Positions 1 to 59,281 of a stretch of 61,401 bases of DNA are shown in pieces. The notes beneath the pieces are model-generated. The model was not told the DNA's origin. It did no database searches and was given only the letters and a program-made list of their open reading frames with translations. The stretch covers positions 1-61,401 of IMG/VR virus record IMGVR_UViG_3300049032_000024, one strand, 5' to 3'. A program made the position numbers and the translations under genes. This DNA comes from a virus (taxonomy: Duplodnaviria > Caudoviricetes). Within the stretch, counting starts at the first letter, position 1. Every line of letters starts with the position of its first letter.

Positions 1-16
1 CCGTTGTTGGGGATAA
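1..16 (+). CDS. 3' end of the SGNH spike gene starting at 59282 (if the window is circular)
   Basis: Frame leaving 61401 (AT) joins C-CGT-TGT-TGG-GGA-TAA, giving ...GKPLTIRCWG-stop. Confidence 0.6.
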
Positions 17-357
17 GAACGCGCTCTAGGAGTTGACGGTGTCTGCCTGTAGGTCTTTGATCCTGCGGGCAGGCACCCCACCGTAGACCCCGTGGTCCTC
101 GCAGTCGGCTGTTACCACGGCGCCGGTCCCCTACGGTCACGCGACGGCTGCCGAACCACACGTCCGGGCTGATCCGCGCCTTGCCGACATTGAGCCCGTA
201 GGCCCGTAGAGCGCGGTGGCGGAGCGGACGCGGGAAAGCAGGTGACGCGATAACGCTGTTCAGCATCAGGTCACGGCCAAGCCCAGGCCAAAGTTTCGAG
301 AGTGTCCCCATGGCCCCAATCATAGGGCTACGAAAGACCGGTTAAGTGCCCCTTGAC

Positions 358-390
358 AGAAGCCCCTGTGCTACGGTACAGGGGCTTCTT
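358..390 (+). terminator. Hairpin, probable intrinsic terminator
   Basis: AGAAGCCCCTGT...ACAGGGGCTTCTT inverted repeat. Confidence 0.55.
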
Positions 391-444
391 GCTGTCCTGC
401 TAAACTTATTGCTAGTTGACAAATCATCGAGCAAGGGGTATAAG

Positions 445-2088
445 GTGGCTCTTCCAGCCGGAATTACAACCGCAACAGTAACGGCAGGTGTGGCACAGAC
501 ATTTTCAGGTGCCTTTACCCGGCAACATATAACCATCACTCCTAGTGCCTCACTAATTCATACTGCCACTGGAATTCCTCTGGTGAATTTCATGGAAGAA
601 ATTGCTTCCACTGAAGGTGTGGCAGGGCAATTTGTATTGCCTCACACGGACCAAGACGGTTTTCAGGATGAGGCTGGAAATGCCTATAAGAATTGGTACT
701 ACACCGCAACAATTCAGTACCAGACTGACCGCGCAACTCTCCCGGCTAAAACAAAGACTTTCCAGCTCACATCTGGACAGACTGTTGTAGACCTTGACCT
801 TTTGCCTACAGGTGTTCCTGCAATGCCCTACACGGCACCTGTTGCAGGAGTGACTTCTGTGAATGGGCAGACGGGTTCTGTGCTGGTGGAGGGTGCTACT
901 GATGCTGCTGTAGCTGAACAGGTTACCTCTGGCCCTGAAACAGTTGCGGCACTTTCTGCCACGATTGGCACCGCCGTGGCTCCCAAGCTGGACCGCAGTA
1001 AGCTTGGATGGGAGGCCATTCAGACGCAGAATTACAAGGCCCTTCAGCCTTGGTTCGCCGCTCTCGGAAACCGGGACACGACCCCGGCGAAAGTCATTTG
1101 GCTGGGCGATAGCGTTACCGAGGGGCTGGGAGCCAGCGCCCGCCCCGGCACCAAGCGATACATCGACAAGGTACTGTCCCGGCTCCGCACCAAGTATCCA
1201 ACAACGGGCATCGGGGCAGGCGGCGGGCTGGGCTACTACCCCACGCAGTACGCGGGCGGCACGGCGCTCTCTGCTGTCACCTACGGCGGCACCACCACAG
1301 CCGACCTCACCGCATCCGGGCTGGGACTCCGCTCCCGCATTCTGGATTCCACGGACGACTACGTGCAGTGGACCGTGACAGGAACGTCCGTGGATCTGCT
1401 GTACCAGAAGAAATCCGCTACCGCCGTGCTGGGCTGGTCCGTGGACGGCGGCGCTGTCACAAACCTGGAGACGATGGGTTCCGGCGGTGCCGATACCGGT
1501 TCACTTCGCATCACGCTGGGCGCGTCCGGATCGCACACTGTCCGGGTAGCCTACGTGTCCGGGGCCCCCGTGCAGCCCGAAGGCGTCTACGTCTTCGACG
1601 GCGACGAAACCAAGGGCATTCACATCTATGAGGCCGGACATCACTCTTACGAGGCGTCCCACTTCATCCCCGCCGGCAATGACAGCCCGATCATCCGGAT
1701 GGCATCGATCAATGCCAACCTGCTGGTGATCGCGCTGGGGGAAAACGAGTTCCTGCACAACAAAACGTCGGCCTCGCTGCGGGCCAACCTTGTCTCCATC
1801 GTCACCAAGCTGAAGTCCTACACCAACCCGGACCCGGCCATCATGTTTGTGATCAACATGGAAGCAAAGTACGCCACGCCCCTGGAGCCGTGGGCCAACT
1901 ACGTCACCGCCATCTACGGGGCCGCATCGGACACCGCCGCCGCCGTGGTGGACATGTCCCTGCGCATGCCCACCATCGGCAGCGCGGAAGCACTCGCGCT
2001 AGGTCTCTACGGGGACGACTACCACCTAAACGACAAGGGCAACGCCATGTTTACCGAACCGCTGGTGGAAGCACTCAGCCCGCGCTGA
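445..2088 (+). CDS. Virion spike/receptor-binding protein with SGNH/GDSL esterase domain
   Basis: GTG at 445 (MALPAG..., same N-terminus as the 59282 gene); VTSVNGQTG fibre motif; WLGDSVTEG, LGENE and DDYHLN SGNH blocks. Confidence 0.8.
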   Translation: MALPAGITTATVTAGVAQTFSGAFTRQHITITPSASLIHTATGIPLVNFMEEIASTEGVAGQFVLPHTDQDGFQDEAGNAYKNWYYTATIQYQTDRATLPAKTKTFQLTSGQTVVDLDLLPTGVPAMPYTAPVAGVTSVNGQTGSVLVEGATDAAVAEQVTSGPETVAALSATIGTAVAPKLDRSKLGWEAIQTQNYKALQPWFAALGNRDTTPAKVIWLGDSVTEGLGASARPGTKRYIDKVLSRLRTKYPTTGIGAGGGLGYYPTQYAGGTALSAVTYGGTTTADLTASGLGLRSRILDSTDDYVQWTVTGTSVDLLYQKKSATAVLGWSVDGGAVTNLETMGSGGADTGSLRITLGASGSHTVRVAYVSGAPVQPEGVYVFDGDETKGIHIYEAGHHSYEASHFIPAGNDSPIIRMASINANLLVIALGENEFLHNKTSASLRANLVSIVTKLKSYTNPDPAIMFVINMEAKYATPLEPWANYVTAIYGAASDTAAAVVDMSLRMPTIGSAEALALGLYGDDYHLNDKGNAMFTEPLVEALSPR

Positions 2089-2121
2089 CCGGGCCAACAA
2101 TACCGGTTAAGTGCCCTAACT

Positions 2122-2160
2122 GAAATACCCTCTCCATACCCGGAGGGGGTATTTCTTTTG
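2122..2160 (+). terminator. Intrinsic terminator
   Basis: GAAATACCCTCTCC/GGAGGGGGTATTTC stem followed by TTTT. Confidence 0.7.
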
Positions 2161-2231: not shown

Positions 2232-3170
2232 TTGACTGTTGCAAAGCTTTTGGAAGAGAAAAGTCTTGTAGGTGATCTAACCGGCAAGACTTGGAAAATC
2301 AAGATCATTGAGGGTGACCGTCAGGGCTCTTCGGCCTACTACCCTAAAGAGGTTCTTGAAGAAGGCGCACACCTTTTCAAGGAAAAGACTCGCATTTTCC
2401 TGAACCATCCCAGTGCAAACGAAAAATGGGATCAGCCGGAACGCAAGGTGCAGGATATCATCGGCTGGCTTTCCAGCGATGCTGTCTATGAGAACGGTGA
2501 CCTTTACGCCAACGCAACATTCAAGGAGTCCGCTCGTGCGGATATCAAGGAATTGGCTGAGGCTGGCGTAATCGCAATGTCCATTCGTGCTCAAGGTGAA
2601 ATGACCGAAGGCAAGAATGGGATGGAGCTGGCTAAGTTCACTGCCGTTCATTCTGTGGACGTGGTAACCGTAGGCGGTGCCGGTGGTGAATTCGACAAGC
2701 TGGTTGAAGCAGGAAAACTAGACCCTTCCACCGAACTGGAAGAACAGAAAGAGGAACAGAAATTGGAACTGCCCAAGGAATTTCTTGACGCACTGGACAA
2801 CCTGACCAAGGGTGTCAACACTCTGAATGAGTCGCTGGCTGAAGAGAAGCAGGCTCGTGCAGACAAGGCACTGGCTGAGGCCAAGGCTCTCGAGGAAGCT
2901 GGCAAGCCTGAAGAGAAGCAGGGTCCGTCCGCTTCTGAGATTGCTGAAGCTCTGGTTGAGGCCAAGCTGTCCACCAAGGCGCGCGCTCGTGTCCTTGAGG
3001 CTGTCGAAGCTGGCAAGCCGCTGGATGAGGCAATCAAGGCTGAGAAGGAAATCGCTGAAGAGATTCTGGCTGAGGCTGGAGCTTCTGGCGGTGCAGGTCA
3101 CATCGAAGATGAGGGTAACCTCACTGAGTCTGCCCGTCTCGAGAATGCATTCTCCGGTATTTACGGCTAA
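2232..3170 (+). CDS. Capsid maturation protease fused to scaffolding domain
   Basis: FLNHP, MSIRA and SVDVVTVGGAGG protease motifs; acidic coiled-coil C-terminus; upstream of capsid genes. Confidence 0.8.
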   Translation: MTVAKLLEEKSLVGDLTGKTWKIKIIEGDRQGSSAYYPKEVLEEGAHLFKEKTRIFLNHPSANEKWDQPERKVQDIIGWLSSDAVYENGDLYANATFKESARADIKELAEAGVIAMSIRAQGEMTEGKNGMELAKFTAVHSVDVVTVGGAGGEFDKLVEAGKLDPSTELEEQKEEQKLELPKEFLDALDNLTKGVNTLNESLAEEKQARADKALAEAKALEEAGKPEEKQGPSASEIAEALVEAKLSTKARARVLEAVEAGKPLDEAIKAEKEIAEEILAEAGASGGAGHIEDEGNLTESARLENAFSGIYG

Positions 3171-3760: not shown

Positions 3761-4930
3761 ATGGATAATCTCAAAGTAATTGAAGAGGCCGCTAAGGTCT
3801 TTGGCGATGCCATCAAGGGTGACTTCCGCGCTCGTGGCCGTATCAAGCAGATTGTCTCTGAGGGCTATGTCCTCAACGAAGCAATCTCCACTTCGGACCT
3901 TGCTCGCACGTTCGCTTACGCGAACTCGTCTGAGCTGCTGAAGCAGTACGCTGGACTACCCACGACTTGGACCCAGTTCGCCAAGCGCGATGTGTTCGAG
4001 GACTTCAAGCCGAAGCGCAAGAAGGAATTCCTCTTCAACGGCGCTGTGGACCTCGAGGACAACGGCGGCTACGGCACTGCGGTTCACTCGCTGCCGAACG
4101 TCCCTGAACTCACCGAGTACCCAACGTTCCGTTGGTCCACTTCGGAGAAGGGTCTGTCCCTCCGTAAGAACGGTGCTCGCATCCCATTCTCGTGGGAAGA
4201 CGTTATCAACGATGAGTGGGGCTTCATCGCCTCGCTGCCGGGTGAAATGGCTCGCCTCGCCAAGACCACGGAAGAGACTGCAGCCCTTGAGGTTCTGGTC
4301 ACTGCTGGCGGTGTCAACGAAACCACGTTCTCTGCTGACAACGGCAACGCGATGGGCACCACCGGCACTGCCGGTACTCGCTACAAGCTGAGCCTGAACG
4401 CGCTCGAGTTCGCCAAGCGTGAAGTCCGCGCCCGTCAGGTCAACGGCAACTACGTCACGGTGCAGAAGTTCGCACTGATCGTTCCTACCAACCTGCAGAC
4501 CACTGCAGAGCGGATTCTGAACATTGGTCAGATTGAAGTCACCGAAGGTGACCTCAAGTTCCAGACCAGCACCAGCAACTCTGATGTGGTTCTCGTGGTC
4601 AATGACTACCTGACTCAGATCAACAAGTCTGCAAACGCTGCTACCACTTGGTTCCTCGTACCGCTCGGCGGTAACGATGGTGTCCGCGATTCCATCGTGG
4701 TCAACTTCCTGCGGAACCACGAAGCCCCTGAGTTCCGTCAGTCCGGCAACACCGGCCTGTACCTCGGCGGTGGCGCTGTTCCTTCTCTGGAAGGTTCGCT
4801 GCTCAACGATGACATTGAGTACCGCGTGCGCCACGTTGTGGCTGGTGGGTTCTGGTTCGGTGCGGCTATGTACGCATCGACTGGTGAATCCAACGCTGCT
4901 GCTCCAGACTACATGTCTGTCCCAGTCTAA
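3761..4930 (+). CDS. Major capsid protein (HK97 fold, Mu gpT-like)
   Basis: 389 aa; FSWEDVINDE and DDIEYRVRHV motifs; high-expression codon bias; synteny. Confidence 0.9.
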   Translation: MDNLKVIEEAAKVFGDAIKGDFRARGRIKQIVSEGYVLNEAISTSDLARTFAYANSSELLKQYAGLPTTWTQFAKRDVFEDFKPKRKKEFLFNGAVDLEDNGGYGTAVHSLPNVPELTEYPTFRWSTSEKGLSLRKNGARIPFSWEDVINDEWGFIASLPGEMARLAKTTEETAALEVLVTAGGVNETTFSADNGNAMGTTGTAGTRYKLSLNALEFAKREVRARQVNGNYVTVQKFALIVPTNLQTTAERILNIGQIEVTEGDLKFQTSTSNSDVVLVVNDYLTQINKSANAATTWFLVPLGGNDGVRDSIVVNFLRNHEAPEFRQSGNTGLYLGGGAVPSLEGSLLNDDIEYRVRHVVAGGFWFGAAMYASTGESNAAAPDYMSVPV

Positions 4931-9766: not shown

Positions 9767-12700
9767 GTGGCTAACGATTTCAACGCCAGTGTTGTCATCA
9801 GCACAAAGGAGTCTGAGGCTGGCATTAGGTCGCTGGACACCGCCGCCAAAGACCTTGACAAGACTCTCCAGAGTCTCCACAAAACCCTTCAAAACAATCA
9901 GGGTGACCTTGATGCTGTAAGCAAGAGCATGAGTGCAATCACTCGTGCGAACGCTGCTCTCATCCGTTCTGAGCAGGACCGCGCCAAGGCCACTGTCCTT
10001 GCTGCCAAGGCTGACGGTCAGATAATTGTCAACCAGTCCAAGCGTCAGAAGTCTGCCAATGACACTGCCATTGCTGAGGCAAAAGCGAACAAGATTCGGC
10101 AGGCCACTCTTGCCAACGGGCTTACCGCGTCTGCCAACCTTACTCGCAAGGACGCTGAGTCTCGTACCCGTATGGCGGGTATCGAAGCAGTCAATCAGCA
10201 GAAGCTAGCCACTGAGACTGTCCGTACCACTACCGCAATTATCAATCAGGGTGCCGCTACCACGCGCGCTGCCAGTGCCACCGAAATGGCTGCAGCACGT
10301 ACCGCTCGGCTCGAGGGTGCTCAGCGGGGGGCTGCTTCCGGCACGCTGGAACTCAATGACTCGCTGTCGAACTCCCGGTATCTGCTGTACGATGTGGGGC
10401 AGACCTACGCGGTGATCGCTGCTGCCATGCAGGTTATCCCTGTGGCAACGGCTGCTGTCGCCATCGCATACGAAAAAGACTTCGCACAGGTCATCCGTAC
10501 CAACGATACTCTGGCCAACAGCACTGGCGGCTTTGCCCAGCTCCGCGATGAGTTGAAGCAGCTCGCTACTGAGATTCCGCTGACCTTCGGTGAGTTCTCT
10601 CAGATCGCTACCATTGGTGGTCAGCTCGGTATCGCCGGTCAGGATATCGAAAGCTTCACTGAGACTGTAGCACGATTCGGCGCTGCGTCCAACGTCTCCA
10701 TTGATGAAGCTGCTACTGCCTTCGGTCGGTTGCAGAACTCTTACGATCCTCAGAAGCTCAACCCTGACTTCTTCAACCAGATCGGTTCCGCCATCGCTTA
10801 CGTTGGTGTGAAGTCTGCGGCCACTGAAGCGGAAATCATCGCGGTCAACAACCAGATTTCTGCTGCCGGTGCCCAGTTCGGATTTGCTGCTGACGAAATC
10901 GTTGGTCTGTCTGGTGCTCTGGCGTCTGTCCGTATCCGTCCTGAACTTGCTCGTGGTGCCTTCCAGCGTATTATGCTGGGGCTCAACCGTGCCGCTGATG
11001 AGGGCGCTGAGTCCTTCCAGAAGTATGGTAAGTACACTGGGCTGGCTGCTGACCAAGCCCTTGCACTCTTCAAGTCCGATCCTTCCAAGTTCTTCCACCA
11101 GTACGTAGGCGGCATCAAGAACGCCATCGCTGAGACTGGTTCTGTCTCCGCTGTGCTTGATGACATTGGAGCCAAGAACGTCTTTGACAAGCAGTTCCTT
11201 TTGGGACTGGCCAACGGCTACAACGTGTTCACGGACTCGCTGCAGAACTCGAACAAGGCTTGGAAGGATGGCAGCTTCCTTACTGAGTCCACCGCTGGTA
11301 TCTACGAGACAGTAGACGCCAAGCTCAAGCGTATTGCCAACGGCTTCAAGAACATCGGTGACTCCATCGGTAAGGCGTCTGTCGGTGAAGGCTCCGGTCT
11401 GGACAAGCTCACTGACTCTGTGCTCGCTGCTACCAGCGCTGTGGATCGCTTCATCAATGCTGCTCCGGGTATTGCTCAGTTCATCAACATTATGATGGGG
11501 CTCGGCTCTGTCATCGGTATCCTGATTGCGTTCAAGGCTGCTCAGGCATTCATGCTTGCCGGTCTGGTTGGCTTCCAGCAGGTGCTTGGTAAGGGTACGC
11601 TTGCTGCGGGTCTGACTGCCAAGGGCATCCTACAGCAGTTGGCAGTTACTATGCTCATGGCCAAGGGTGTCTCCCAGCAGCACGCACAGGCTCTCGTGGT
11701 ACAGTCCGGCGCGCTGCGTGCTATGGGTATGTCTGCTCAGGTTGCAAATGCCCAGCTTGCATCCAGCGCTGGTGGTATGGCAGCGGGTGTTGTTGCCAGC
11801 ACTGATGCCGCTACCAAGAGCACCAACCGCTTGGTAGGTGCCTTCAAGGCTGGTATCGGCATGTTGGGCGGTCCTATCGGTATCTCCGTTATGGCACTGG
11901 GTACGCTGGCCTTCAGCTTCATCCAGACTGCTGAGGAAGCTGCCACTGCCGGTGAAGCTATCGCGCGCGCAATGGATCAGGGAGCTGACGCTGCCACTCG
12001 TGCTTCGGCTGACGCCATTGCGAAAATCAAGGTAGCGTGGCACGATCCTATCGCGCTCGGTAACCTTGACCGCTCGCTGGCTGAGGTTGCTCGTGACGCA
12101 GGTGTACCTTTTGAGAAGCTTGCTGCCGCTGCTGCCAAGGGCCGTGACGCTGGCAAGGAAGTCCTTGCTGTCATGGATCAGATTGCTCGGTCCAAGGGCT
12201 TTGCGGACTTCGCTGCCATGCGTAATGCAGGTGGAGCACATGCCGGTCAGATGGAGTGGCTGAAGAACAAGATCACTGAAATTGGTGAGAAGTCTGCTGT
12301 CACTGGTGAAGACCTCAAGGACGTAAAGACTGCCACTGACGCTTTCGGTGGTGCGGCTGCTGATGCTGGTCCTAACGCTGAAATGTTCGCTAGCGAAATC
12401 GGCGGTGTAGGTGATGAGGCTGAGACTGCTGCTGACAAGATTGACAAGTTCCTTGATGCCGTCTTCGGCATTGTGGATGCTGCCGGGGCTTCCCAGTCTG
12501 CACTTCAGGCTCTCGGTGAAGGTCTGTTCGACTCTCTGGACTTCGGCCCGAACACTGAGGGTGGACGCGCCAACGTAGAGAACTTCAAGGAAGCTCTGCG
12601 GTCTGCGGCTCAGGAACAGCAGTACCTTATTGACTCGACTGGCAAGAGCACACAACAGGCCAGCGCTGACTACATCGCTTTCGTTGATGGCCTTGTGCAG

Positions 12701-14734
12701 GAAATGATCGCGCGCGGTGTTGATCCCACCAACCTGCAGGTCATTGCTGAGCAGGCCAAGCTTGGTGTGGCCAATGTGTTTGAGGGTGGAGTACAGCCAA
12801 CCATCACTCCCAGGGTGGATGGTACGGTTGCCGCTGCTGAAGCACAGCAGGTAGCTGCCGGTGTTGAGGCGTCTGTCAACAAGCCGTACACCACTTGGAT
12901 TTTCGCTGACGGTTCTCAGGCTCTCAATGAGTCTGCCGGTGTGGAAGCTTACGCCAGCTCGGTTGCTCGTGAGTACACTGCGGGAATCAATGCTGACGCC
13001 AGCGCTGGTATTGAGAACACCAGCAACTTCGGCTTCTTTGCCAATGAAGTGACTGGTGCCAACTACGAGGCCAAGGTCAACGCGGATACCTCTCCCGCAA
13101 TCCTGAACCTGCAGAACCTTGCGAACTTTGCCCAGACGGTCATCAATGCTATCCAGTTTGGTATTGGTCTAATCGGTAACGGCATCAACAGCAAGAAGCA
13201 GGTTGGTGCTGAGATTGGCAACGTCAAGGCTGGCGCTGCTCTCGGTCCTTCGGCTGCGGCTGCTCCCTCCCCGGTAGCTGCACCTGTGGTCAACCGGGCG
13301 GCTGCACCTGCAGTCATCCCCACGCCCAAGGCTGTAACTCCGAACTTCGGTTCTCTGAACGATGGCTACAACAAAGCAGCCAAGGCAGCAGAGAAGGCTG
13401 GCGATGCCGGTAAGAAGGCCGGTAAGGACATGGCTGACGGTATTGATGATGCCGCTGAAGCAGCCAACGATTACGCCAACCGGCTGAAGACTGGGCTCAC
13501 CGCTGCGTTTGATCGCCAGTACGGTCTGCAGAAGGCCACGGACGAGTACCATTCTGCTCTGAACGCTATCAACAAGAAGCGTGAGGATGAGCTGAAGCAG
13601 ATTGATGACCTCATTGCTGCTCAGAAGGAACTCAACAACGAACGTGCTGAAGAGCTGGTCAACGCTCGCAAGGCGGGTATCGAAAAGGATATCTCGCTGA
13701 AGTACGGTGAGGTTGATCGCGCTGCTGACTATGCTCAGCAGGAGCAGGAAGCTCTTGATGCCGCTGCTGCAAAGCAGAAGGACATTGAGGCCAACAACGC
13801 TCAGATCATTTCGCTTCGGGCAGGCATCGGGCAGCTCGAGGGCTATTCGGAAGCAGCCATTGCGAACAGGGCGGCTCTGCGTGATCTTGAGTCCAAGATG
13901 CTGGACATGGTTGTGGCTTACGCCAACACTGGAGCTTCGGTGGATCAGGTTCGCAACTACGCTGCGGGACTGACCAACCAGTTCAAGATCGACGTGTCCC
14001 AGATGGGTTACAACCAGTGGGCAGTTGGGCAGCTTCAGGGCGCGCTTGAGCGGTACATCGGTGTTATCAACGCGGTGCCTTACCACAAGCCAACCACCGT
14101 TACTGCTGACGTAGGTACGCCTACCTCCGGTGCAATGGGTGCGGTGAACGCATTCGGTCAGGCTGCTGACTGGGCAGCTCGGCCACGGAACACCGTACTG
14201 ACTCTGGACACGTCTGCTGCTACTCGTGCTCTGCGGCACATTGATGCTCAGATTCGTGGTGGTGGTACTCCGGACGATCCAAGCATGACTGCTTTCGAGC
14301 CCGGTACGTTCTCGCGTAGGGCTGGTGGCGGGATCATTCCGGGCTTCGCTGGTGGTGGTCAAATTCCGGGCAAGGCTCCGTCCAACCTGAAGCATGACAA
14401 CATGATGGCTTCGGTTGATGGCCGGGGCTTGGTTCAGGTTCAGTCTGAAGAGTTCATCATGCAGAAGCGTGCTGTGGACTTCTGGGGCTTGGACATGATG
14501 AACGCGCTGAACAACATGAAGATGCCACAGTTCAACGCTGGCGGTTCCTTCAGCGGACGGGGTGGCTCTGGCTCGGGCTCGAGCGGACCTATGCTGGTAG
14601 AATTGACAGCAGATAACCTGCAGGCTATACTTCGGCTCGCTGAACGGGATATACACCTGTTTGCCGATACCGAACAGCTTGCTTCCAGCGTCAATGAAGG
14701 TCAGCGTGTGCTGGCAAGCAAGGGAGTCAGTTAG
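9767..14734 (+). CDS. Tape measure protein
   Basis: 1655 aa, Ala-rich; TP901-type TMP region; C-terminal FAGGG...EEFI motif. Confidence 0.95.
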   Translation: MANDFNASVVISTKESEAGIRSLDTAAKDLDKTLQSLHKTLQNNQGDLDAVSKSMSAITRANAALIRSEQDRAKATVLAAKADGQIIVNQSKRQKSANDTAIAEAKANKIRQATLANGLTASANLTRKDAESRTRMAGIEAVNQQKLATETVRTTTAIINQGAATTRAASATEMAAARTARLEGAQRGAASGTLELNDSLSNSRYLLYDVGQTYAVIAAAMQVIPVATAAVAIAYEKDFAQVIRTNDTLANSTGGFAQLRDELKQLATEIPLTFGEFSQIATIGGQLGIAGQDIESFTETVARFGAASNVSIDEAATAFGRLQNSYDPQKLNPDFFNQIGSAIAYVGVKSAATEAEIIAVNNQISAAGAQFGFAADEIVGLSGALASVRIRPELARGAFQRIMLGLNRAADEGAESFQKYGKYTGLAADQALALFKSDPSKFFHQYVGGIKNAIAETGSVSAVLDDIGAKNVFDKQFLLGLANGYNVFTDSLQNSNKAWKDGSFLTESTAGIYETVDAKLKRIANGFKNIGDSIGKASVGEGSGLDKLTDSVLAATSAVDRFINAAPGIAQFINIMMGLGSVIGILIAFKAAQAFMLAGLVGFQQVLGKGTLAAGLTAKGILQQLAVTMLMAKGVSQQHAQALVVQSGALRAMGMSAQVANAQLASSAGGMAAGVVASTDAATKSTNRLVGAFKAGIGMLGGPIGISVMALGTLAFSFIQTAEEAATAGEAIARAMDQGADAATRASADAIAKIKVAWHDPIALGNLDRSLAEVARDAGVPFEKLAAAAAKGRDAGKEVLAVMDQIARSKGFADFAAMRNAGGAHAGQMEWLKNKITEIGEKSAVTGEDLKDVKTATDAFGGAAADAGPNAEMFASEIGGVGDEAETAADKIDKFLDAVFGIVDAAGASQSALQALGEGLFDSLDFGPNTEGGRANVENFKEALRSAAQEQQYLIDSTGKSTQQASADYIAFVDGLVQEMIARGVDPTNLQVIAEQAKLGVANVFEGGVQPTITPRVDGTVAAAEAQQVAAGVEASVNKPYTTWIFADGSQALNESAGVEAYASSVAREYTAGINADASAGIENTSNFGFFANEVTGANYEAKVNADTSPAILNLQNLANFAQTVINAIQFGIGLIGNGINSKKQVGAEIGNVKAGAALGPSAAAAPSPVAAPVVNRAAAPAVIPTPKAVTPNFGSLNDGYNKAAKAAEKAGDAGKKAGKDMADGIDDAAEAANDYANRLKTGLTAAFDRQYGLQKATDEYHSALNAINKKREDELKQIDDLIAAQKELNNERAEELVNARKAGIEKDISLKYGEVDRAADYAQQEQEALDAAAAKQKDIEANNAQIISLRAGIGQLEGYSEAAIANRAALRDLESKMLDMVVAYANTGASVDQVRNYAAGLTNQFKIDVSQMGYNQWAVGQLQGALERYIGVINAVPYHKPTTVTADVGTPTSGAMGAVNAFGQAADWAARPRNTVLTLDTSAATRALRHIDAQIRGGGTPDDPSMTAFEPGTFSRRAGGGIIPGFAGGGQIPGKAPSNLKHDNMMASVDGRGLVQVQSEEFIMQKRAVDFWGLDMMNALNNMKMPQFNAGGSFSGRGGSGSGSSGPMLVELTADNLQAILRLAERDIHLFADTEQLASSVNEGQRVLASKGVS

Positions 14735-14737: not shown

Positions 14738-15607
14738 ATGACTGAGAAAATGTACTTCGGTGTACTGGATAACATTCAGGAAATCCCTGTACCGAAATCG
14801 GGAATGGGTTACAACAGCAACGCTGACACTGAAGTTACAGAACTCGTGAGTGGTGGGCGTAGCGTGTACCGTGCGCCTACCACTTACAAGTCATTCAACA
14901 TGACTTGGGCCACCACTGCTGACCGGCTGCGTCACATCATCGCCATGTATAACGGCCAGTTCGGCACTGGTCCGTTCTACCTGTCCGACCCTACGGTGAA
15001 TCAGGAGAATATGCTTCCTGCTCGCTGGTCCAACGGCTGGCAGCTTGCTCATCAGGCCAACGGCTGGTGCCGCCCTACGGTGGAGAAGGCTATCACACCT
15101 ACCTCCGTCTACAGCGGTACTTACTATACAGACCGCGCTGCCTTGTTCACTCAAGTTGCTGCAGGCTCGGCTGTTGTCCTTGAAGGAGTTGTCCGCACTC
15201 GAGTCATTCGAGTTCCCGGCAAGCCGTACTACTTCAGTGCTGATCTTGAGTCCACAGGCGGTGCTTCCGTAAAGGTGCGTGGCTATAACGGCACTACACG
15301 TACTTGGACCACATTGCTCAGCGCTACCTCTTCGGCTATGTCAAGCCTTGTAGTAGCAGACACCAACACTACAACCACCATGCTTGAACTGGACATCTAC
15401 ATGCCTCTCGGCTCCACACTGCGTGTGTACGGGCTTGCGCTAGGTACGGTAGATCATTCACAGTACGGCAACAACTGGATGCCCGTAGGCAACGGCATTG
15501 GTCCGGTGACTTTCCCCGATACCACGAATGGTGAGCTTGTGTCAAGCACCATTGATAGGATTGGACTGTCACTGGATTTCATTGAAGTTGAAAGTATTGA
15601 GGGATAA
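14738..15607 (+). CDS. Minor tail protein (distal tail-like)
   Basis: Follows TMP; GPFYLSDP motif. Confidence 0.75.
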   Translation: MTEKMYFGVLDNIQEIPVPKSGMGYNSNADTEVTELVSGGRSVYRAPTTYKSFNMTWATTADRLRHIIAMYNGQFGTGPFYLSDPTVNQENMLPARWSNGWQLAHQANGWCRPTVEKAITPTSVYSGTYYTDRAALFTQVAAGSAVVLEGVVRTRVIRVPGKPYYFSADLESTGGASVKVRGYNGTTRTWTTLLSATSSAMSSLVVADTNTTTTMLELDIYMPLGSTLRVYGLALGTVDHSQYGNNWMPVGNGIGPVTFPDTTNGELVSSTIDRIGLSLDFIEVESIEG

Positions 15608-17781
15608 TGCCAGCCAGCATCATCAAGGGAGACGGTTCAGGTAAGCCGGTAGGCCAGCTTGCCAACTACTCCATCACCAAGAGTAACGTCCCAACCAACC
15701 CCTCTGACAACAGCGGTCAGATTCCCACATTCAAGGCAACGGTCACCAACCCGTCCAAGGACAGCAAGACTCACCTTGGCGACCCGGTTGTGCTGATTGA
15801 CTCGGACAAGACTGACACCGTTGGTGTGGTTGTTTCTGCATCAAGCTCTGCCAAGTCTGGGCTCACTACGTTGGATATGAACACAGTGTTTGAGAGGTTG
15901 AACACTGAGCAGACCACGTATCCTCTCTACACCGACTCGACATTCAACACCAACATGGCCGCGTCAGCAATCACTCAGTGGTTGCTGCAGGCAGGTGTGC
16001 CCCAATACCGGATGCCGGGGAACCTGCAGCACTACATCACCAACGCTCAGGTTGGCTACAGCTCGCGCTCTGCCTCTACGTGGGTACAAGCTCCAACTGC
16101 TGAGTGGCCTAGCAACCACGCGCGCTACAAGCCGAACTACGGTACGAACCTTGGGCGTATTGAGGTCAACCTTGCTCAGTCCATCATCTGGGGAATGCCC
16201 CTGAACTCTTGGAACCAGACCGACTACAACCAGCAGGTTGTTGTTGGGGCATGGCACTACAAGCTGAACAACACTGTGAGCTACCGGCTGATGCAGGTAG
16301 GCAGGGTCATTACTTTGTCACAGAAGACGGGTACGGGCTCGTACACGGTGCTGGCTACACTGACCTGCCCCACAACTACCACCATCACCGCTGACTTCCT
16401 GTACGTGCTCATCACGGCTCATCCTACGGTTGCTGGCAATATCTCCGTGGCCCTCCGTGCTGTGTGCTATGACACTATCTCTGGGCAGGACGTGGTGTAC
16501 GAAAGCACAACCGCTTCGGTAGCGTCCACTCTCCGTGACCGCCCTGAGCTGCGGACGCTTGACCTTGGGTATGACACTGCTCAGGCTGGTATCGACATGA
16601 GCCCTTCCCTGTTCTTCATCAGTGAGGGCACTGAGATTCCGTTCACCAAGCCCCATGACCAGATTGAGTTTGTGCTTGACCCTGATGCCAAACCTCTGAC
16701 TTGTGTGCCGGGATTCACTGGCAACGTGTGGGAGAAACTGAAGGAGTTCTGCTCACTGCAGGGTCTTGATATCAGCTTCGGCAATGACAAGCTCGTGTTC
16801 ACGCCGCGCAAGTTCCAGCGCTTCAACCCTGACGATGACACGTACAAGCCTATGCTTGCTCTGCCCAAGGCCAACGTGTCTGAGTCTGCCAGCCAGCGTG
16901 AGAAGGCTCGAGCTGTGGAAGTTGTCTACCGCCAGCAGCCGAAGAAGAGTGTGTCCGCGTACTACAACAATGAGCTGTGGCGCGCTGACTCTGTGTACTC
17001 GGTAGAGCCGGGAGAGAAGCTGGTTGAGGTTGTGCAGACCGACAGCACATTCCTCACGCTGAACCAGCCTGTCCCTGTCTCCGGTGTACCCGTCCCGTAC
17101 ACCAACTCCTACGGTGCCTACGTGGTGACAGGCAATGACGGTTACATTGTTGATCCCCAGTGGTGGAAAGACAACGGCGGTTCCATCAAGGTTCAGCCTA
17201 CGGGCAAGGCCGGTGAAATCGAAATCACCATTCAGGCTCCAGCCATCATTACCTCTCGGGCTCCGTACCGTATCTCTGAGGGTGTGGCTGACCGTCCCGC
17301 GCTCTACATCTTCGGTGATGGTCTGAAGCTTGACAAAGAGAAGACCATCAAGGTCTACACAGGTGACCCGGACGCTTCTGAGGAAGTGGGGATCAAGTTC
17401 GACTCCATCTTCATCACTGACAAACTCTCGGCATTCAATGCGGGATTCAAGCTAGCCACAATGTACGGTACCGGCGAGTCAATTCTGAATTATGACATTC
17501 CCCGCAAGGAACGTCAGGAGTTCAGTTACGGCGGGGATTTCGTTTACGACGCGAACACCGAAGACCACAATGTGTATTTCAATGGCTCGGCTTACCGCGC
17601 TGAACAGTACAGCCTTGGTCCGAATAAAACGAATGTCTCTCGAGCCGTGAGGTATAACACTCACCGGATTCTCAATGGGGAATTTGCTACCGGCAAAACT
17701 GTGGCTGACTGGAACGCCTTGCACGCCGGTAAGAAGATCAAAGACACTAACTTGGCACCACTGCCGAATTACATTAGCTAG
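15607..17781 (+). CDS. Minor tail protein
   Basis: 724 aa beta-rich protein in the tail-tip position. Confidence 0.75.
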   Translation: MPASIIKGDGSGKPVGQLANYSITKSNVPTNPSDNSGQIPTFKATVTNPSKDSKTHLGDPVVLIDSDKTDTVGVVVSASSSAKSGLTTLDMNTVFERLNTEQTTYPLYTDSTFNTNMAASAITQWLLQAGVPQYRMPGNLQHYITNAQVGYSSRSASTWVQAPTAEWPSNHARYKPNYGTNLGRIEVNLAQSIIWGMPLNSWNQTDYNQQVVVGAWHYKLNNTVSYRLMQVGRVITLSQKTGTGSYTVLATLTCPTTTTITADFLYVLITAHPTVAGNISVALRAVCYDTISGQDVVYESTTASVASTLRDRPELRTLDLGYDTAQAGIDMSPSLFFISEGTEIPFTKPHDQIEFVLDPDAKPLTCVPGFTGNVWEKLKEFCSLQGLDISFGNDKLVFTPRKFQRFNPDDDTYKPMLALPKANVSESASQREKARAVEVVYRQQPKKSVSAYYNNELWRADSVYSVEPGEKLVEVVQTDSTFLTLNQPVPVSGVPVPYTNSYGAYVVTGNDGYIVDPQWWKDNGGSIKVQPTGKAGEIEITIQAPAIITSRAPYRISEGVADRPALYIFGDGLKLDKEKTIKVYTGDPDASEEVGIKFDSIFITDKLSAFNAGFKLATMYGTGESILNYDIPRKERQEFSYGGDFVYDANTEDHNVYFNGSAYRAEQYSLGPNKTNVSRAVRYNTHRILNGEFATGKTVADWNALHAGKKIKDTNLAPLPNYIS

Positions 17782-19434: not shown

Positions 19435-20397
19435 TTGAGCTACCTGCTTGATTACAACCCCGGCACCCAACAGTGGGGCTACCCCCGCCGTGGCGGTGCC
19501 AAACTGTCAGGGACAGCAATTGTCCATACTGCCGAGTGTGCTCGTGATGACATTGGGGAAGACACGAGTGCTGAAGGTTGCGCGCATATGATCGCCAACC
19601 GCGCTGACTATGGATCGTACCACCGTCTTGTTGACTCGGACAGCATCATTGACATGCTGCCTTGGGAGTATGAGGCGTGGCAGGACTCAGAGACTAACAA
19701 CTGGGCTGTAGGCATTTCTGCTGCACTCCGCACGTCTGACTGGGCTGTGATGCCAGCAGACCGCCGCGAGCGGGTGTACTGGAACATGGCGGCCTGTGCC
19801 GCTGATTTCGTGTCCTACATGAAGGTCACCTACGGCATTACGGTTCCGCTGCGTCGAATCTCCGGTGCAGAGGCTAGGGCTCGAGTTCCCGGCTTCTGTG
19901 CTCATGGCGATTCAGGCATTGCCCGTAGTGATCCGGGCGCAAACTTTGACTGGGGCAAGTTCTTCGGTTACACACAACAGATTCTCGACGGAAAAACTCA
20001 GGAGGACGAATTGTCTGCAGCAGAAGCAGCACACATCATTTCATCGCTGGAAGCGGTCATCAACCACGCCTTTGATCGTACCAAGAGCGAACTACCTGCC
20101 GATACCGCCAACGCGGTGTTCAGCAAGCCGCTCCCCTACGCGGACGCTGAGACTGCCAAGGTCACCGATCAGCCAACCACGCTGGGGACGCTCGTGACGT
20201 ACAACGATTTCCAGCACAGTGCCACTCGGCGTACCGTGGCTGACGCTGCAAGGGCCATTGTGGACGCTGTAAAGGCTGCACCGGCTGAGGATGCCGCTGG
20301 CGCTGCGGAAGCAGCTTACACGGCCTTCCTCGAGAAGCTGGGCAATGTCAAGGTTGGCTTTGCGGTTGACGTACAGGAAGAAGAGGTACAGCAGTGA
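19435..20397 (+). CDS. Endolysin, N-acetylmuramoyl-L-alanine amidase
   Basis: IVHTAE, GSYHRLVD and FCAHGD...RSDPG Zn-amidase motifs. Confidence 0.9.
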   Translation: MSYLLDYNPGTQQWGYPRRGGAKLSGTAIVHTAECARDDIGEDTSAEGCAHMIANRADYGSYHRLVDSDSIIDMLPWEYEAWQDSETNNWAVGISAALRTSDWAVMPADRRERVYWNMAACAADFVSYMKVTYGITVPLRRISGAEARARVPGFCAHGDSGIARSDPGANFDWGKFFGYTQQILDGKTQEDELSAAEAAHIISSLEAVINHAFDRTKSELPADTANAVFSKPLPYADAETAKVTDQPTTLGTLVTYNDFQHSATRRTVADAARAIVDAVKAAPAEDAAGAAEAAYTAFLEKLGNVKVGFAVDVQEEEVQQ

Positions 20398-20992: not shown

Positions 20993-21080
20993 TCTATCTC
21001 TATTTATTATTATTTTTATATATTATTTGCAGACACACTAATTGAAGAAGGTAAGGAAAGAAGCTAGGGACTCGTAAAAG
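20993..21080. repeat. AT-rich non-coding element, copy A (homologous to 51333-51420)
   Basis: 28/29 identity TCTATCTCTATTTATTATTWTTTTTATAT, followed by a similar purine tract. Confidence 0.7.
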
Positions 21081-31172: not shown

Positions 31173-31985
31173 CTACGCGGTGATGGCCGCGTAGTAGTCC
31201 GCCATCTTCGGATTCTTCATTCTGTCCGGTAGTTTGTGCTCGTACCGACTACCTGCGTCGATCCTACCAGAAGCAGTCAGGTGAAGCAAACGGTAACCGT
31301 TGCCTTCATCATCCTCTGTTTTTTCCAGATACGCAATGGTATCAGGAATCTTCGGGATTTCAATGTTGGACTTCTTACCAAGGAAGTTGGGGCTCAAGAG
31401 CACCGTTCCCAGCACATCATCCTTTTCCTTGGACGTGTGTGCTATGAGGAAGAAGTTGTACTGGCTGTTGTGCAGCGCGTCTGTCACGTAGATCAGGCCG
31501 TCTGCAACCTTGTCCCAGATTTCGTAAGCGTTCTTCGTGTTGGGGTTAGCAGCACGATAGTCACGCTTGATGATTTCTTGGAACTGACCAGCGGTGTCAA
31601 TAACCACCGTCTTGTACTTGGTCTTGTTGTCCACAACCTTGTTGACGATGTTTATCATCTTGGCGGTGTCCTTGATGTGGACAACATCAATGCGGTCATC
31701 ATCGTACAGACCGGCGAACGCTCCCGTACCGTCTTCCGTGGCGAGCCACAGGACTGGGAACATTCCGTCTACCTCAGCACACTGGGAGACAAAGGTGGAC
31801 TTGCCTACACGGTGACGCCCGTACAGTAGCATCGACGTGCGCTTACGTGCTGGTGTGGGAGCTTCAATCTCCGCAATGTCACTCAAGTCGAACAAGTCTT
31901 CCTCGAGCAGTTCATTTTCTTCTGCTACCGCTGCTTCGCTCAGTTTGTTGCCTCTTCCTTTTCGTAGAATTCGGGATAAACCCAC
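31173..31985 (-). CDS. AAA_24/Sak4-like ATPase
   Basis: LYGRHRVGKST Walker A; TVVIDT Walker B; start codon uncertain. Confidence 0.85.
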   Translation of the reverse strand: MGLSRILRKGRGNKLSEAAVAEENELLEEDLFDLSDIAEIEAPTPARKRTSMLLYGRHRVGKSTFVSQCAEVDGMFPVLWLATEDGTGAFAGLYDDDRIDVVHIKDTAKMINIVNKVVDNKTKYKTVVIDTAGQFQEIIKRDYRAANPNTKNAYEIWDKVADGLIYVTDALHNSQYNFFLIAHTSKEKDDVLGTVLLSPNFLGKKSNIEIPKIPDTIAYLEKTEDDEGNGYRLLHLTASGRIDAGSRYEHKLPDRMKNPKMADYYAAITA

Positions 31986-32191
31986 AGGAGGTCAGGATCG
32001 TGATCGAACTTGACCCTGATATCCCCCTCGTACTTTACACTCAAATGATGCACGGTGCCAACTTGTCCTTCCTTGAAGTCGCGCTCATTGACGCCTTCAC
32101 GGATACGGACCTTATCGCCTACTGCAACACTCAATGCGAGCCCCTTTGCCCCAGCTAGTTTCTGAATAGAACTCGAGAGCAGACGTAGCAA
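31940..32191 (-). CDS. Small SH3-like hypothetical protein
   Basis: VGDKVRI...GTV motif; true start probably near 32134. Confidence 0.5.
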   Translation of the reverse strand: MLRLLSSSIQKLAGAKGLALSVAVGDKVRIREGVNERDFKEGQVGTVHHLSVKYEGDIRVKFDHDPDLLWVYPEFYEKEEATN

Positions 32192-32838
32192 TCATCATCC
32201 ATAGGGAGTGAATCAAGCTTTCCCTCTTGAACTCGGCTCCAGATCAACTCTAGCCTAGCCAGTGCCTTGCGTGCAACTTCAGGGTTGTAGGGCTCCGTGT
32301 AGAACCGTATGTCGTCAGGATCATTGCTGAGCTTGGGGATGACACACAGGTTGACGGTTTCCACCGGCTTGCCTGCCTTGACCCAGCCGTACCCGTAAAG
32401 GTGTTGCTGAACACGGTACTTCGTGTTCGGTAGCCGGTTGGGCTCGAGCTGGTAGGCAAGCTTCATCTCCGTGAAGCTCCACTTGCCTACCACCTTCCAG
32501 TCAAAGATGTGCCCTGCCTTGTAGAAGTCGGTGGAACCACTGATGGTCCCATACCCCTCAAGGTGATAGATGGCGTTCTTCTGCTCTTTGATTGCGCCCG
32601 GAATATCCAGCGTAGTGTCGATGTAGTTATGCACTGCCGTACCGATCCAGCTACCGAGCCCGAAACGCTCCGTATGTTCGAGGTCTGGGTACTGTTCCGG
32701 CAAGGCCAGTGCAAGCTTCTCACCTAAGCACAAGGGGCAGCCTCCAATTTCAGAAGGACCTAAGCGCTTTTGTTGGCCGCGATTGGTGGGTTTCGTAATC
32801 TCGCTGACAATCTTACGTTTTAGTGTTTCAAGCCGCAA
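32155..32838 (-). CDS. Cas4-like PD-(D/E)XK exonuclease
   Basis: GPSEIGGC, GTAVH, DWK, QQHLYG and C-terminal CYVC motifs. Confidence 0.85.
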   Translation of the reverse strand: MRLETLKRKIVSEITKPTNRGQQKRLGPSEIGGCPLCLGEKLALALPEQYPDLEHTERFGLGSWIGTAVHNYIDTTLDIPGAIKEQKNAIYHLEGYGTISGSTDFYKAGHIFDWKVVGKWSFTEMKLAYQLEPNRLPNTKYRVQQHLYGYGWVKAGKPVETVNLCVIPKLSNDPDDIRFYTEPYNPEVARKALARLELIWSRVQEGKLDSLPMDDDCYVCSRVLFRN

Positions 32839-33295
32839 TAGCTACACGTCTCTTTTCATCATGCTTGCGTCCTGCCTGCCTGATGCAAATACGGCATCTG
32901 CGTGTACCTTTAGGAGTCACGTAGACATTATCAGCACACAGCTCATGCCCTTGAACGCAGTGGGTTAGTGTGGGTCGCACAATGGACTTGTAGAACTCTA
33001 TGCGCCGACGATTGTTTTCCTCATCCGTGACAGCTTCAAGGTGGGAAGGTCTGACACAGTTTCGTGTCCTGCATCTGTGATCCAGCGTCAGGTCTTCTGG
33101 AACTCTACTACCGTACTCGAGTTCCCATGCCACCCTGTGTGCTGCACAGGTCTTCCTGTCTATCCGTATGGAGCCGTACCCTTTGCTGACCTTGGCACCT
33201 GTCCAAAGCCAGCAATCCGCCGATTTAGTTACCTTGTCCCAGAACCTTGCGCTGAGTCCCAAGGCATTCTCAGCGGTTAGGTACTGCAAGGTCAT
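32828..33295 (-). CDS. HNH endonuclease
   Basis: CWLWTG, AHR, LDHRCRTRNCVRPSHLE motifs; HCVQGH Zn tail. Confidence 0.9.
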   Translation of the reverse strand: MTLQYLTAENALGLSARFWDKVTKSADCWLWTGAKVSKGYGSIRIDRKTCAAHRVAWELEYGSRVPEDLTLDHRCRTRNCVRPSHLEAVTDEENNRRRIEFYKSIVRPTLTHCVQGHELCADNVYVTPKGTRRCRICIRQAGRKHDEKRRVAIAA

Positions 33296-34579: not shown

Positions 34580-35194
34580 TTACAGGTGTTCCCATTTGCC
34601 AGCATCGTTGTTATCCAGCGTGACCTTCTGGACAATGCCAGATGACGTGTGGTAAATGCAGATACCTTCAGGACGGTCAAACCCATACACAGCCCAAGAG
34701 CCGTGTTCCTGCAAGTTGTCCAGAGCTGCAGTGATTGCTTTTTCCTTCATTGGGCCTTTGTAGAGCACCGGCACACAACGTACGAGTCCGTCTGAGTCTT
34801 CCCAGATGTTCTCAAAGCGGTGAGTGTTGAAGAGGCTGAAGACCTTCTCACCCTTCTTCAATCCATAACCACGCTGGATTCCTGAGCCCCACCACTCGCC
34901 AAAGTGCAACCCTTCGCCAAGGAAGGTGACCAGCTCTTCAGCGTGCGACTGTACCCAGCCAGCAAAGCCAGCGTTGTCCTGTCCAAGCCGGATGAGCTTG
35001 TTGCGGGACTGGGCATAGACCGCGTACCAAGCATCGCCTACGTTGTTGTAGGACAGTACGTTGAGGTCACCTATTTCAGGGGACTCTACGCGCCGGATAC
35101 CTACCGCAGCGTTGGTACCATCAATTTTTTCTGTAATCACAATGTCACGGAAGAAGCGGGAAGTCTTGGGCCAAGGGGTAAATTCGATAGTCAA
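34580..35194 (-). CDS. RNA ligase (Rnl2-like)
   Basis: TEKIDGTN, FGEW and EGI nucleotidyltransferase motifs. Confidence 0.8.
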   Translation of the reverse strand: MTIEFTPWPKTSRFFRDIVITEKIDGTNAAVGIRRVESPEIGDLNVLSYNNVGDAWYAVYAQSRNKLIRLGQDNAGFAGWVQSHAEELVTFLGEGLHFGEWWGSGIQRGYGLKKGEKVFSLFNTHRFENIWEDSDGLVRCVPVLYKGPMKEKAITAALDNLQEHGSWAVYGFDRPEGICIYHTSSGIVQKVTLDNNDAGKWEHL

Positions 35195-35207
35195 TGCTTT
35201 CCTTATC

Positions 35208-37288: not shown

Positions 37289-37490
37289 TGTCTTCTTCCT
37301 TTGTAGTGAGAATAAGCCGTTGACCGAAGCCTGTACCAAGACCTGTACCGACTAGAGAGAAGTGTTCCATACACATGAATGCCCACATTCCGTTGACGGT
37401 CCTACCGTCATAGTGAGCGTCCTTGTCTACACCTTGTTCCTTACAAAAGTCACACTTGGGATATTCGGCCACGATTGCAAACTTTCCCAT
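37275..37490 (-). CDS. Small Cys-containing protein
   Basis: CDFC...YDGRT...WAFMC...GLGTG; strong RBS. Confidence 0.65.
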   Translation of the reverse strand: MGKFAIVAEYPKCDFCKEQGVDKDAHYDGRTVNGMWAFMCMEHFSLVGTGLGTGFGQRLILTTKEEDIEDN

Positions 37491-59234: not shown

Positions 59235-59281
59235 TTGACAAACTGTTAGACTTGTGCTAACGACTTCTTGAAGGGACTACA

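Follow-up and report, generated by a model that had tools for sequence, protein, structure and literature searches.

Enzymatic cassettes between a coding junction word and a non-coding box in the spike genes of an Arthrobacter-type siphophage and its relatives

The locus considered here lies in a virus genome of 61,401 nucleotides (IMG/VR record IMGVR_UViG_3300049032_000024, analysed over its whole length and called the window below), in which two spike genes, designated A and B, each join a conserved N-terminal anchor domain to a divergent part with a high guanine-plus-cytosine (GC) content, designated the cargo. It raises the question of whether these cargos are cassettes exchanged at defined sites, as had been proposed in a first-pass annotation of the same DNA, and by what means such an exchange would proceed. 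Comparison with relatives supports cassette behaviour of the catalytic parts, the edges of which fall at two short motifs, i.e., a junction word within the coding sequence and a non-coding box between the cargo and a terminator-like hairpin. The swaps themselves are read here, with a probability of about 0.7, as homologous recombination at these two conserved islands. The features on which the argument turns are as follows.

59233-59242, plus strand: AGTTGACAAA decamer upstream of spike B, promoter-like -35 element
59282 to the record end, plus strand: spike B
59282-59760, plus strand: N-terminal anchor domain of spike B, 60% identical to that of A
59761-59778, plus strand: left junction motif of B (ELSATI), left cassette boundary
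59779-61401, plus strand, running off the record end: cargo of spike B, predicted SGNH esterase domain (PF13472, 47.7 bits against a cut-off of 32.9)
323-354, plus strand: copy 1 of the 3' box (core 15-mer at 337-351), right boundary of cassette B
358-389, plus strand: terminator-like hairpin 1, 14 bp (minimum free energy -36.3 kcal/mol over 325-400, z-score -4.4)
445-2088, plus strand: spike A
445-947, plus strand: N-terminal anchor domain of spike A, with a GTG start at 445 backed by homologues
948-965, plus strand: left junction motif of A (ALSATI), left cassette boundary
966-2088, plus strand: cargo of spike A, predicted SGNH esterase domain (PF13472, 42.3 bits against a cut-off of 32.9)
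2089-2119, plus strand: copy 2 of the 3' box (core 15-mer at 2102-2116), right boundary of cassette A, without a minus-strand -10 element
2122-2155, plus strand: terminator-like hairpin 2, 14 bp, followed by a T-run

Spikes A and B are 60% identical over approximately 175 residues, and the similarity stops at LSATI, which is encoded in both genes by left motifs that agree at 16 of 18 bases. The N-terminal domains have a GC content of 0.505-0.509 and the cargos one of 0.637-0.661, compared to 0.539 for the genome, and the 15-mer ACCGGTTAAGTGCCC occurs at 337-351 and 2102-2116, in each case 6 nt upstream of a 14-bp hairpin. The outline drawn in the first-pass annotation, i.e., a lower-GC N-terminal domain, a switch to a high-GC cargo at LSATI, an SGNH fold in both C-terminal parts and an identical 15-mer closing both high-GC blocks, is therefore correct. 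Both cargos are predicted to be SGNH/GDSL hydrolases, as their profile scores exceed the cut-off and catalytic blocks are present (GDS, GENE and DDYH in A, GHS and DGTH in B; we take the catalytic Ser to represent block I and DxxH block V), while no Pfam family was matched by the C-terminal part of the B cargo. The source gene call for spike A (P0004, 501 residues) begins 46 codons downstream of the start that homologues support.

The anchor domain has 72 homologues of 300-958 residues, whose C-termini comprise SGNH, right-handed beta-helix, polysaccharide deacetylase, BNR, GH43 and collagen sequences as well as sequences of no known family, and a profile-free scan extended the anchor family to 542 representative clusters. 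The suggestion that the cargos are acyl-esterases covers only part of them, since relatives also carry beta-helix, BNR, GH43, deacetylase or unassigned folds in the same position. In the alignment, a variable linker separates a conserved VTSVNGxTGAV from L(S/N/T)AT(I/Y/F), beyond which the sequences are unrelated; similarity of the homologues to A ends either near residue 148 or at residues 172-186. An AlphaFold2 (AF2) model of the A anchor is a beta-sandwich with a mean predicted local distance difference test (pLDDT) score of 70.5, for which a Foldseek search of the PDB returned no solved structure at E <= 0.001, and for which BFVD gave matches to predicted N-terminal regions of minor tail and tail fibre proteins from actinophages. 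PHROG labels for the spike genes read ‘tail protein’ and ‘tail fiber’. The AGTTGACAAA decamer has its only other copy at 414-423, upstream of spike A, and is inferred to act as a promoter element of the spikes; the shorter TTGACAAA is present six times, at 416, 5168, 6886, 17330, 57601 and 59235, in all cases on the plus strand and never on the minus strand, and these sites may represent late promoters. Megablast of both spike regions against GenBank phages gave no match, no locus was confirmed by a single-protein search of IMG/VR or by an alignment-based search of species genomes with the N-terminal domain, and an Rfam scan of positions 1-2400 returned just two chance-level matches to eukaryotic RNAs.

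Natural relatives of the window carry a different cargo in the interval from junction word to box, with flanks that are up to 100% identical. A 2783-bp metagenome contig (L021) is 100% identical to positions 58968-59775 and 334-478, and between these flanks it carries 1830 different nucleotides with three open reading frames (ORFs) without a Pfam match. The 56-kb relative L003, which possesses one spike gene in the same slot and a backbone approximately 76% identical to the window, aligns to the A anchor up to position 963 and resumes exactly at 2102. At the protein level, P0075 is 100% identical to residues 1-173 of A and then continues with a different, weakly RHS-like sequence, while P0026, P0042 and P0023 (98%, 98% and 95% identical to the B anchor, respectively) diverge immediately after LSAT(I/Y), the C-terminal part of P0026 being BNR plus lectin-like. 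Logan contigs from three independent runs (X2, X5 and X6), belonging to three different studies, show the same boundaries. A single 4588-nt contig of X5 covers 323-962 and 2091-2400 with 1485 other letters in between, and continues before 323 with sequence unlike the window; the X2 contigs begin at 334, 336 or 352, with an end at 962 in one contig; contigs of X6 switch at 334 and 962, and start at 2102-2103. A further run, X3, gave no contig matching this region, which has no bearing on absence.

Pairwise alignment of the fetched loci (flanks at least 85% identical, same-contig duplicates removed) extends this pattern, the counts being of ordered pairs of loci and hence not of independent events. 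Of 63 left-flank alignments, 40 stop within -6 to +9 nt of the last base of the motif, the other 23 ending at -246 to -12 or at +27 to +129. On the right, 25 of 35 alignments begin within -14 to +46 nt of the start of the box and the remaining ten at +74 to +187; in eight of these 35, identity resumes -3 to -1 nt of the box core. Seven loci (L039, L040, L042, L044, L048, L049 and L050) have left flanks that are 88-95% identical over approximately 780 nt, and the five among them with a delimitable cargo show no cargo similarity to each other. Among all cargos compared (48 intervals, about 40 after removal of duplicates), a single pair at 68% is related at the DNA level. Breakpoints in relatives, as seen in L021, L003, P0075, the three sequencing runs and the pairwise alignments, are thus clustered at both motifs rather than scattered, and the motif pair, which is present in dozens of loci and in 21 of 23 loci selected by the box, is not the remnant of one gene duplication; on both points the earlier proposal withstood comparison.

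The converse arrangement, i.e., one cargo behind different anchors, is also found. The B cargo is 93.6% identical in P0217, where it stands behind a 28-residue peptide ending in ALSATI and where the alignment begins at residue 162 of B, the L of LSATI; in P0218, where the identity is 84.6%, it is preceded by approximately 165 residues of an unrelated N-terminal domain. The closest relative of the A cargo, P0202, is 58% identical and stands behind a 38-residue docking peptide ending in LSATY.

Across relatives the left motif takes the form of a junction peptide, (A/E)L(S/N/T)AT(I/Y/F), encoded by a nearly fixed DNA word. Codon choice was assessed in 42 instances selected by the peptide pattern alone, so that codons were not pre-selected. 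The Ala codon is GCC in 41 of 42 (background 0.37; binomial p 4e-17), the Leu codon is CTA or CTT in all 42 (background 0.22; p 5e-28), and the middle codon ends in T in 41 of 42, while the third base of the Thr codon is free. As the peptide has no need for such codons, the bias suggests either that the DNA word is itself constrained or that it is constantly re-spread by exchange. In a number of loci (L007-L012 and L040-L054) anchor and cargo are encoded by two genes, the former of 232-238 residues and the latter beginning M(G/S)ILDPKP...(A/E)L(S/T)AT(Y/I). From these split forms and the homologues with docking peptides it follows that the junction peptide is part of the cargo side, and it probably docks the cargo onto the anchor.

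The right boundary is formed by a non-coding element of approximately 30 nt with the core GACCGGTTAAGT(G/T)CCC. Exact 15-mer repeats are common in this genome (32 in the window, in about 16 repeat families by our own grouping), and the case for the box therefore rests on its position and on relatives; among shuffled sequences, 44 of 100 gave at least two matches when up to three mismatches were allowed. The box follows the spike cargo in L003, L005, L008 and L009, and L007 and L010 have a variant that itself forms a hairpin. The collection had reached 22 instances, including L045, before an exact scan of IMG/VR with a 16-nt core returned 44 stretches, of which 39 possess, as judged by eye, the extended context (a stop codon and GGGSC, the core after about 8 nt, and CCCCAAC(T)GAA with, in most cases, a hairpin behind it), with the other five being chance-like. 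The anchor family of the window's spikes is present in just five of 43 box-scan loci, and a genuine junction peptide was found 1.1-3.8 kb upstream of the box in 21 of the 23 loci that have an upstream candidate. Ten large ORFs ending at the box comprised four SGNH proteins, two GH43/GH32-like proteins, one beta-helix protein and three without a Pfam match.

A 19-nt form of the box gave nine hits in 185,579 species genomes, and the eight of these that fall in Arthrobacter or Pseudarthrobacter, in prophage-like contexts, point to the likely host genus; the motif pair thus extends across the phages and prophages of Arthrobacter as a genus. The GC content of the cargos (0.61-0.66) resembles that of the Arthrobacter genome loci (0.60-0.64), the phage backbone being at 0.54. 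The box is retained beside unrelated downstream genes, namely the protease in the window and L003, the second spike gene after the copy at 337, and in L005 a gene whose product is a predicted membrane protein, holin-like by eye. Stops in all three frames occur in 29 of 58 box regions compared to 22 of 1160 random windows, where non-coding DNA is expected to be richer in stops, and the energy of the downstream hairpin does not discriminate boxes (50 of 58) from controls (242 of 290). A conserved small peptide ORF across the box was rejected, the spacing from ATG to stop differing by 1 nt between loci; the ATG of the box is better explained as the start of a gene predicted on the minus strand.

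Read on that strand, the box is GGGG(A/C)ACTTAACCGGTC. In 25 of 58 unique boxes TTAACC has a TANNNT hexamer 14-17 nt behind it, compared to 1.3% of 1740 control positions, and in 15 boxes an ATG lies 5-9 nt past TANNNT (0.5% in controls), of which 12 open ORFs of at least 50 residues; in other boxes a ribosome-binding site and start are located 20-70 nt further on. There is an even chance, in our estimate, that the box would constitute the upstream half of a promoter facing into the cassette. Ten box-adjacent minus-strand genes were scanned against Pfam, and comprised three AT3 plus SGNH O-acyltransferases, two with AT3 alone, three SGNH lipoprotein-like genes (one below the cut-off), one Wzy_C-like membrane protein and one without a hit; small membrane proteins were seen by eye beside the box in further loci. 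As a separate observation, cassettes of phages and prophages (L100, L118, L140, L144 and L146) contain AT3-type O-acyltransferase genes, some fused to SGNH, that are reverse-oriented beside the box and convergent with the spike enzyme gene.

In the window, the minus strand of box copy 1 reads TTAACC, 15 nt, TATGAT, 7 nt and an ATG, which opens an ORF of 134 residues.

130-311, minus strand: relic acetyltransferase in cassette B, start ATG at 311, 134 residues

Residues 12-60 of this ORF are 46.9% identical (tblastn, E 4e-8) to gp33, annotated as ‘acetyltransferase’, of the Arthrobacter phage Gorpy. It has no Pfam or NCBIfam hit, and it is read as a relic since its remainder looks degenerate. 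Gorpy, a cultured phage, has a comparable arrangement: gp31 carries ...LPARLQDTALSATY, gp32 is a glycoside hydrolase according to the record annotation, gp33 and two membrane protein genes are reverse-oriented, and gp36, a deacetylase, is followed by a degenerate box and then a terminator. Just upstream of the annotated start of gp34 lie TATACT, 7 nt and an ATG.

The two motifs had also been described as an inverted repeat, GGCACTT on the left and AAGTGCC on the right. This 7-nt repeat is present in gene A, and does not extend to gene B, where the left arm is GGAACTA. As a functional pair it failed on comparison: the left motif and the reverse-complemented box agree at 6.25 of 10 positions within loci and at 6.24 between loci, and the polymorphic base of the pairing matches in 16 of 40 loci where 44% is expected. 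The consensus left word and reverse-complemented box do share GGMACT plus one to three further bases. Co-variation of the inverted repeat had looked promising in the first set of loci, with an 8-nt match in L005, and was gone in the box-selected set and in the comparison of within-locus and between-locus pairs.

How the exchange would be catalysed is suggested by the enzymes that the genome encodes. The statement that no recombinase is visible is right for the tyrosine and serine types, as PF00239, PF07508 and PF00589 gave no matches in the genome with positive controls, and does not extend to the following genes.

31173-31985, minus strand: Sak4-like single-strand annealing protein (phrog_124, E 2.7e-36, residues 28-266 of 270)
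32155-32838, minus strand: exonuclease, likely the partner of the annealing protein (phrog_1674, E 5.7e-36)
33008-33145, 43418-43552 and 45486-45617, minus strand: HNH_3 nuclease ORFs
55683-55850, plus strand: HNH_3 nuclease ORF, just upstream of the large terminase gene

The lack of a site-specific recombinase, the failure of the inverted repeat and the presence of a Sak4-like protein with an exonuclease favour homologous exchange at the two islands. Phage annealing proteins are said in the literature to promote recombination between short and diverged sequences, and De Paepe et al. have reportedly spoken of ‘relaxed homologous recombination’. Both spike genes are laid out as a promoter-like site of their own, a conserved anchor, a short linker, the junction peptide, a variable high-GC cargo (a predicted glycan-active enzyme, which in some cassettes is accompanied by further ORFs or by surface-glycan modifiers in reverse orientation), the box and a terminator. 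On the favoured reading, co-infecting phages or resident Arthrobacter prophages would be the partners, and exchange would start in the two stretches that are the sole ones alike between otherwise diverged phages, through a relaxed recombination tolerant of short homology and catalysed by the phage's Sak4-like annealing protein and exonuclease, by host RecA, or by both. The left island would be kept alike by encoding the peptide that docks cargo onto anchor, or, in split forms, the N-terminus of the cargo protein, and the right island by overlapping an inward promoter that drives, often leaderless, the reverse-oriented conversion genes. The outcome would be a plug-and-play change of the surface glycan that the phage cleaves or deacylates.

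A number of points weigh against this reading. The shared islands, at approximately 15-20 nt, are short for efficient homologous exchange, the Sak4-like protein and exonuclease are named from PHROG profiles only, and the putative spikes are assigned to the tail through annotations and matches of predicted folds. Recognition of the DNA word by a protein would explain the frozen codons equally well. As to the box, its -35-like hexamer lies just 15-16 nt from the -10 element, a short spacing; its invariance over 16 nt exceeds what a -35 element needs; and the 33 of 58 boxes without a -10 element, including the copy at 2102, have a core that is no less conserved, so that promoter function alone fails to explain its conservation. 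RNAalifold, furthermore, predicted no pairs in 51 aligned boxes, which led us to drop alternative hairpins or an attenuator within the box. Two further candidates were set aside, namely an integron cassette (no tyrosine recombinase, and no consensus structure in the same 51 boxes) and a diversity-generating retroelement (no reverse transcriptase, PF00078 having no matches in the genome, and no cargo repeat among the 20 largest of at least 60 direct-repeat families).

A bolder proposal, which we consider tentative and unlikely though worth stating, is of a genus-wide, recombinase-free system in which two DNA signals, the codon-frozen junction word and a 16-nt box doubling as a reverse promoter, direct the targeted exchange of modules pairing a spike enzyme with a modifier of the same glycan. 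Exchange could then be stimulated by a signal-recognising phage nuclease, and host range and superinfection immunity would, if this is true, be reprogrammed together as one unit. A dedicated mechanism, in which a nuclease or DNA-binding protein cuts at the word or box and repair copies the cargo of a neighbouring phage or prophage in a homing-like manner, is improbable. It would account for breakpoints that are sharp to within a few nucleotides and for conservation of both motifs at the DNA level beyond coding or promoter needs, and candidates exist in the free-standing HNH proteins, with four HNH_3 ORFs in the genome and, in L105, a minus-strand gene beside the box that is HNH-like by eye only. 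The cassettes of the window, however, have no linked nuclease, and the genome lacks a tyrosine or serine recombinase and a reverse transcriptase. The HNH ORF at 55.7 kb adjoins the terminase gene, a placement typical of packaging-associated HNH proteins, and the two motifs are unlike each other except for a 6-7/10 resemblance without co-variation.

Homologous exchange must also be set against selection acting alone, the classical Hendrix-type model of phage mosaicism, whereby illegitimate recombination occurs everywhere and the surviving chimeras are those joined at a domain boundary and at the end of a transcription unit. The placement of the motifs suits this model, in that the left one is a domain boundary, and a docking peptide in split forms, and the right one lies between stop codon and terminator. 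It predicts, however, a scatter of tens of nucleotides in the linker and right flank, whereas the two closest comparisons regain identity exactly at 2102 and 334, and the eight alignments noted above do so within -3 to -1 nt of the core of the box; nor does it account for frozen synonymous sites at the junction or for an identical box kept beside unrelated downstream genes, and we regard it as a poor candidate. An invertible, shufflon-like switch, whereby a recombinase would act on the inverted repeat to turn the cargo round and give the anchor a different C-terminus, is already contradicted: the 7-nt repeat in gene A, the GGMACT-based likeness at the consensus level and the many cassettes with a reverse-oriented gene beside the box would fit it, but the genome lacks an invertase or Rci-type recombinase, a fusion made at the shared core reads ...ALNRSFVAL* with a stop after seven codons, the reverse-oriented genes have starts of their own and encode acyltransferases, lipoproteins and membrane proteins rather than fibre ends, the motifs do not co-vary within loci, and no mapped contig changed strand at the motifs.

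The wider gene order is that of a siphophage, as mapped with PHROG profiles, and the record, which has no end repeats and is rated complete by CheckV, is a complete, circularly permuted genome of an Arthrobacter-type siphophage. The two paralogous spike genes are located between portal and protease, an unusual location.

55882-57504: large terminase (PHROG profile)
57636-59234: portal (PHROG profile)
2232-3170: prohead protease (PHROG profile)
3761-4930: capsid (PHROG profile)
9767-14734: ORF of 1655 residues, read as the tape-measure gene by its length alone
14738-17781: tail proteins (PHROG profile)
19435-20397: endolysin (PHROG profile)
Minus-strand block: replication genes (PHROG profile)

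The assumption that cassette B continues across the circular junction is sound as far as the adjacency of the record ends is concerned, the order of portal, spike, box and next gene in L021 and L003 being consistent with a circular reading, and falls short in that the closure is inexact. Positions 3-29 (plus strand) encode VVGDKNAL followed by a stop, in a frame that differs from that of the ORF running off at 61401, so that, by our reading, approximately 10 nt appear to be missing where the ends meet and the frame of spike B changes there. Two close homologues of the B cargo end in ...KPLTIRACTVVGDKNA(L/V), the window end reading ...KPLTI, and the stop of spike B is probably at 27-29 and not at 14-16. 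A 55.5-kb metagenome contig carries anchor-family genes at both ends (L060 and L066), and seems, on that account, to represent a second phage genome cut within its tandem spike region.

Elsewhere in the genome, four to five copies of TGTGGATAA lie at 46497-46611 with spacings of 21 and 43 nt; we take these to resemble DnaA boxes or iterons, and they may mark a replication origin. A 29-nt AT-rich repeat of 97% identity occurs at 20993-21021, at the border between the rightward structural and lysis genes and the leftward early genes, and at 51333-51361. An intergenic repeat of 28-59 nt (71-86% identical, with a short palindrome) separates small rightward genes at 47034-47061, 47920-47978 and 49413-49471. 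Genes for a polynucleotide kinase (phrog_505) and RNA ligases (phrog_562 and phrog_548) are clustered at 34580-37339 on the minus strand, presumably as an RNA-repair set.

Exchange of receptor-binding domains is central to the evolution of phage host range, and sharp natural examples are few and mostly enterobacterial. The present locus offers boundaries defined to a few nucleotides, isogenic variants that differ in cargo only, and one cargo behind three anchors. The motif pair also serves as a search key, as exact box scans alone recovered approximately 40 cassettes on viral contigs and indicated the host genus, and the resulting catalogue is a route to new cell-wall glycan esterases and glycosidases. 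The locus makes testable whether islands guide recombination or selection sorts random joins, whether spike enzymes travel with genes that modify the same glycan, and whether the motif pair may be used as a landing pad for cargo swaps in Arthrobacter phages.

Among known systems, the Mu G and P1 C segments and the shufflons combine a constant N-terminal part with alternative C-terminal parts at short defined sites; they require a linked site-specific recombinase and inverted sites and switch within one genome, none of which applies here. Temperate phages of the P22/Sf6 type pair a glycan-cleaving tailspike with O-antigen conversion genes, and the present locus is alike in that the spike adjoins genes predicted to acylate or alter the same kind of surface glycan. 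It differs in that the putative conversion genes lie inside the cassette, reverse-oriented and starting at the box, and in that the hosts are Gram-positive Micrococcaceae. In the fibre loci of T-even phages, short conserved islands in hypervariable fibre genes reportedly act, according to a 1998 study, as crossover points that reassort specificity segments; those islands are repeated coding motifs inside fibre genes, whereas here there is one coding junction and one non-coding box, and what lies between them is an entire enzyme domain or a module of several genes.

Klebsiella phages combine an N-terminal anchor with an exchangeable depolymerase, and second proteins dock via short ‘conserved peptides’ (PMC6872550). 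The anchor-branch proteins described there are similar in having a docking peptide and fused and split forms, although folds and hosts differ, the text consulted does not mention DNA-level boundary signals, and here one junction peptide serves both forms. The closest likeness is to E. coli O-antigen phages (Virol J 2023, PMC10408124), in which a genus-conserved anchor carries an exchanged receptor-binding domain flanked by conserved upstream DNA motifs and a 20-nt non-coding downstream motif, proposed as recombination hotspots. The hosts are different, and the motif sequences probably differ as well. The downstream motif of the E. coli phages is itself the predicted terminator, whereas the box lies ahead of the terminator and can in many cases be read as a reverse promoter; here, moreover, the motifs are where the breakpoints fall, even between flanks that are 100% identical, and the motif pair spans several unrelated anchor families.

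Searches of the literature on minor tail mosaicism in Arthrobacter phages, and for the box core and its reverse complement as strings, returned no description of the motif pair. The apparent swaps exemplify a known way in which phages alter their targets, and the logic of the locus matches that of the T-even and E. coli fibre motifs. Within these searches, new features appear to be the host group, the sharpness of the boundaries together with natural variants that are isogenic, a single motif pair that serves several anchor families and reaches prophages, and the combination of frozen codons with a possible second role of the box as promoter for glycan-modifying genes inside the cassette.

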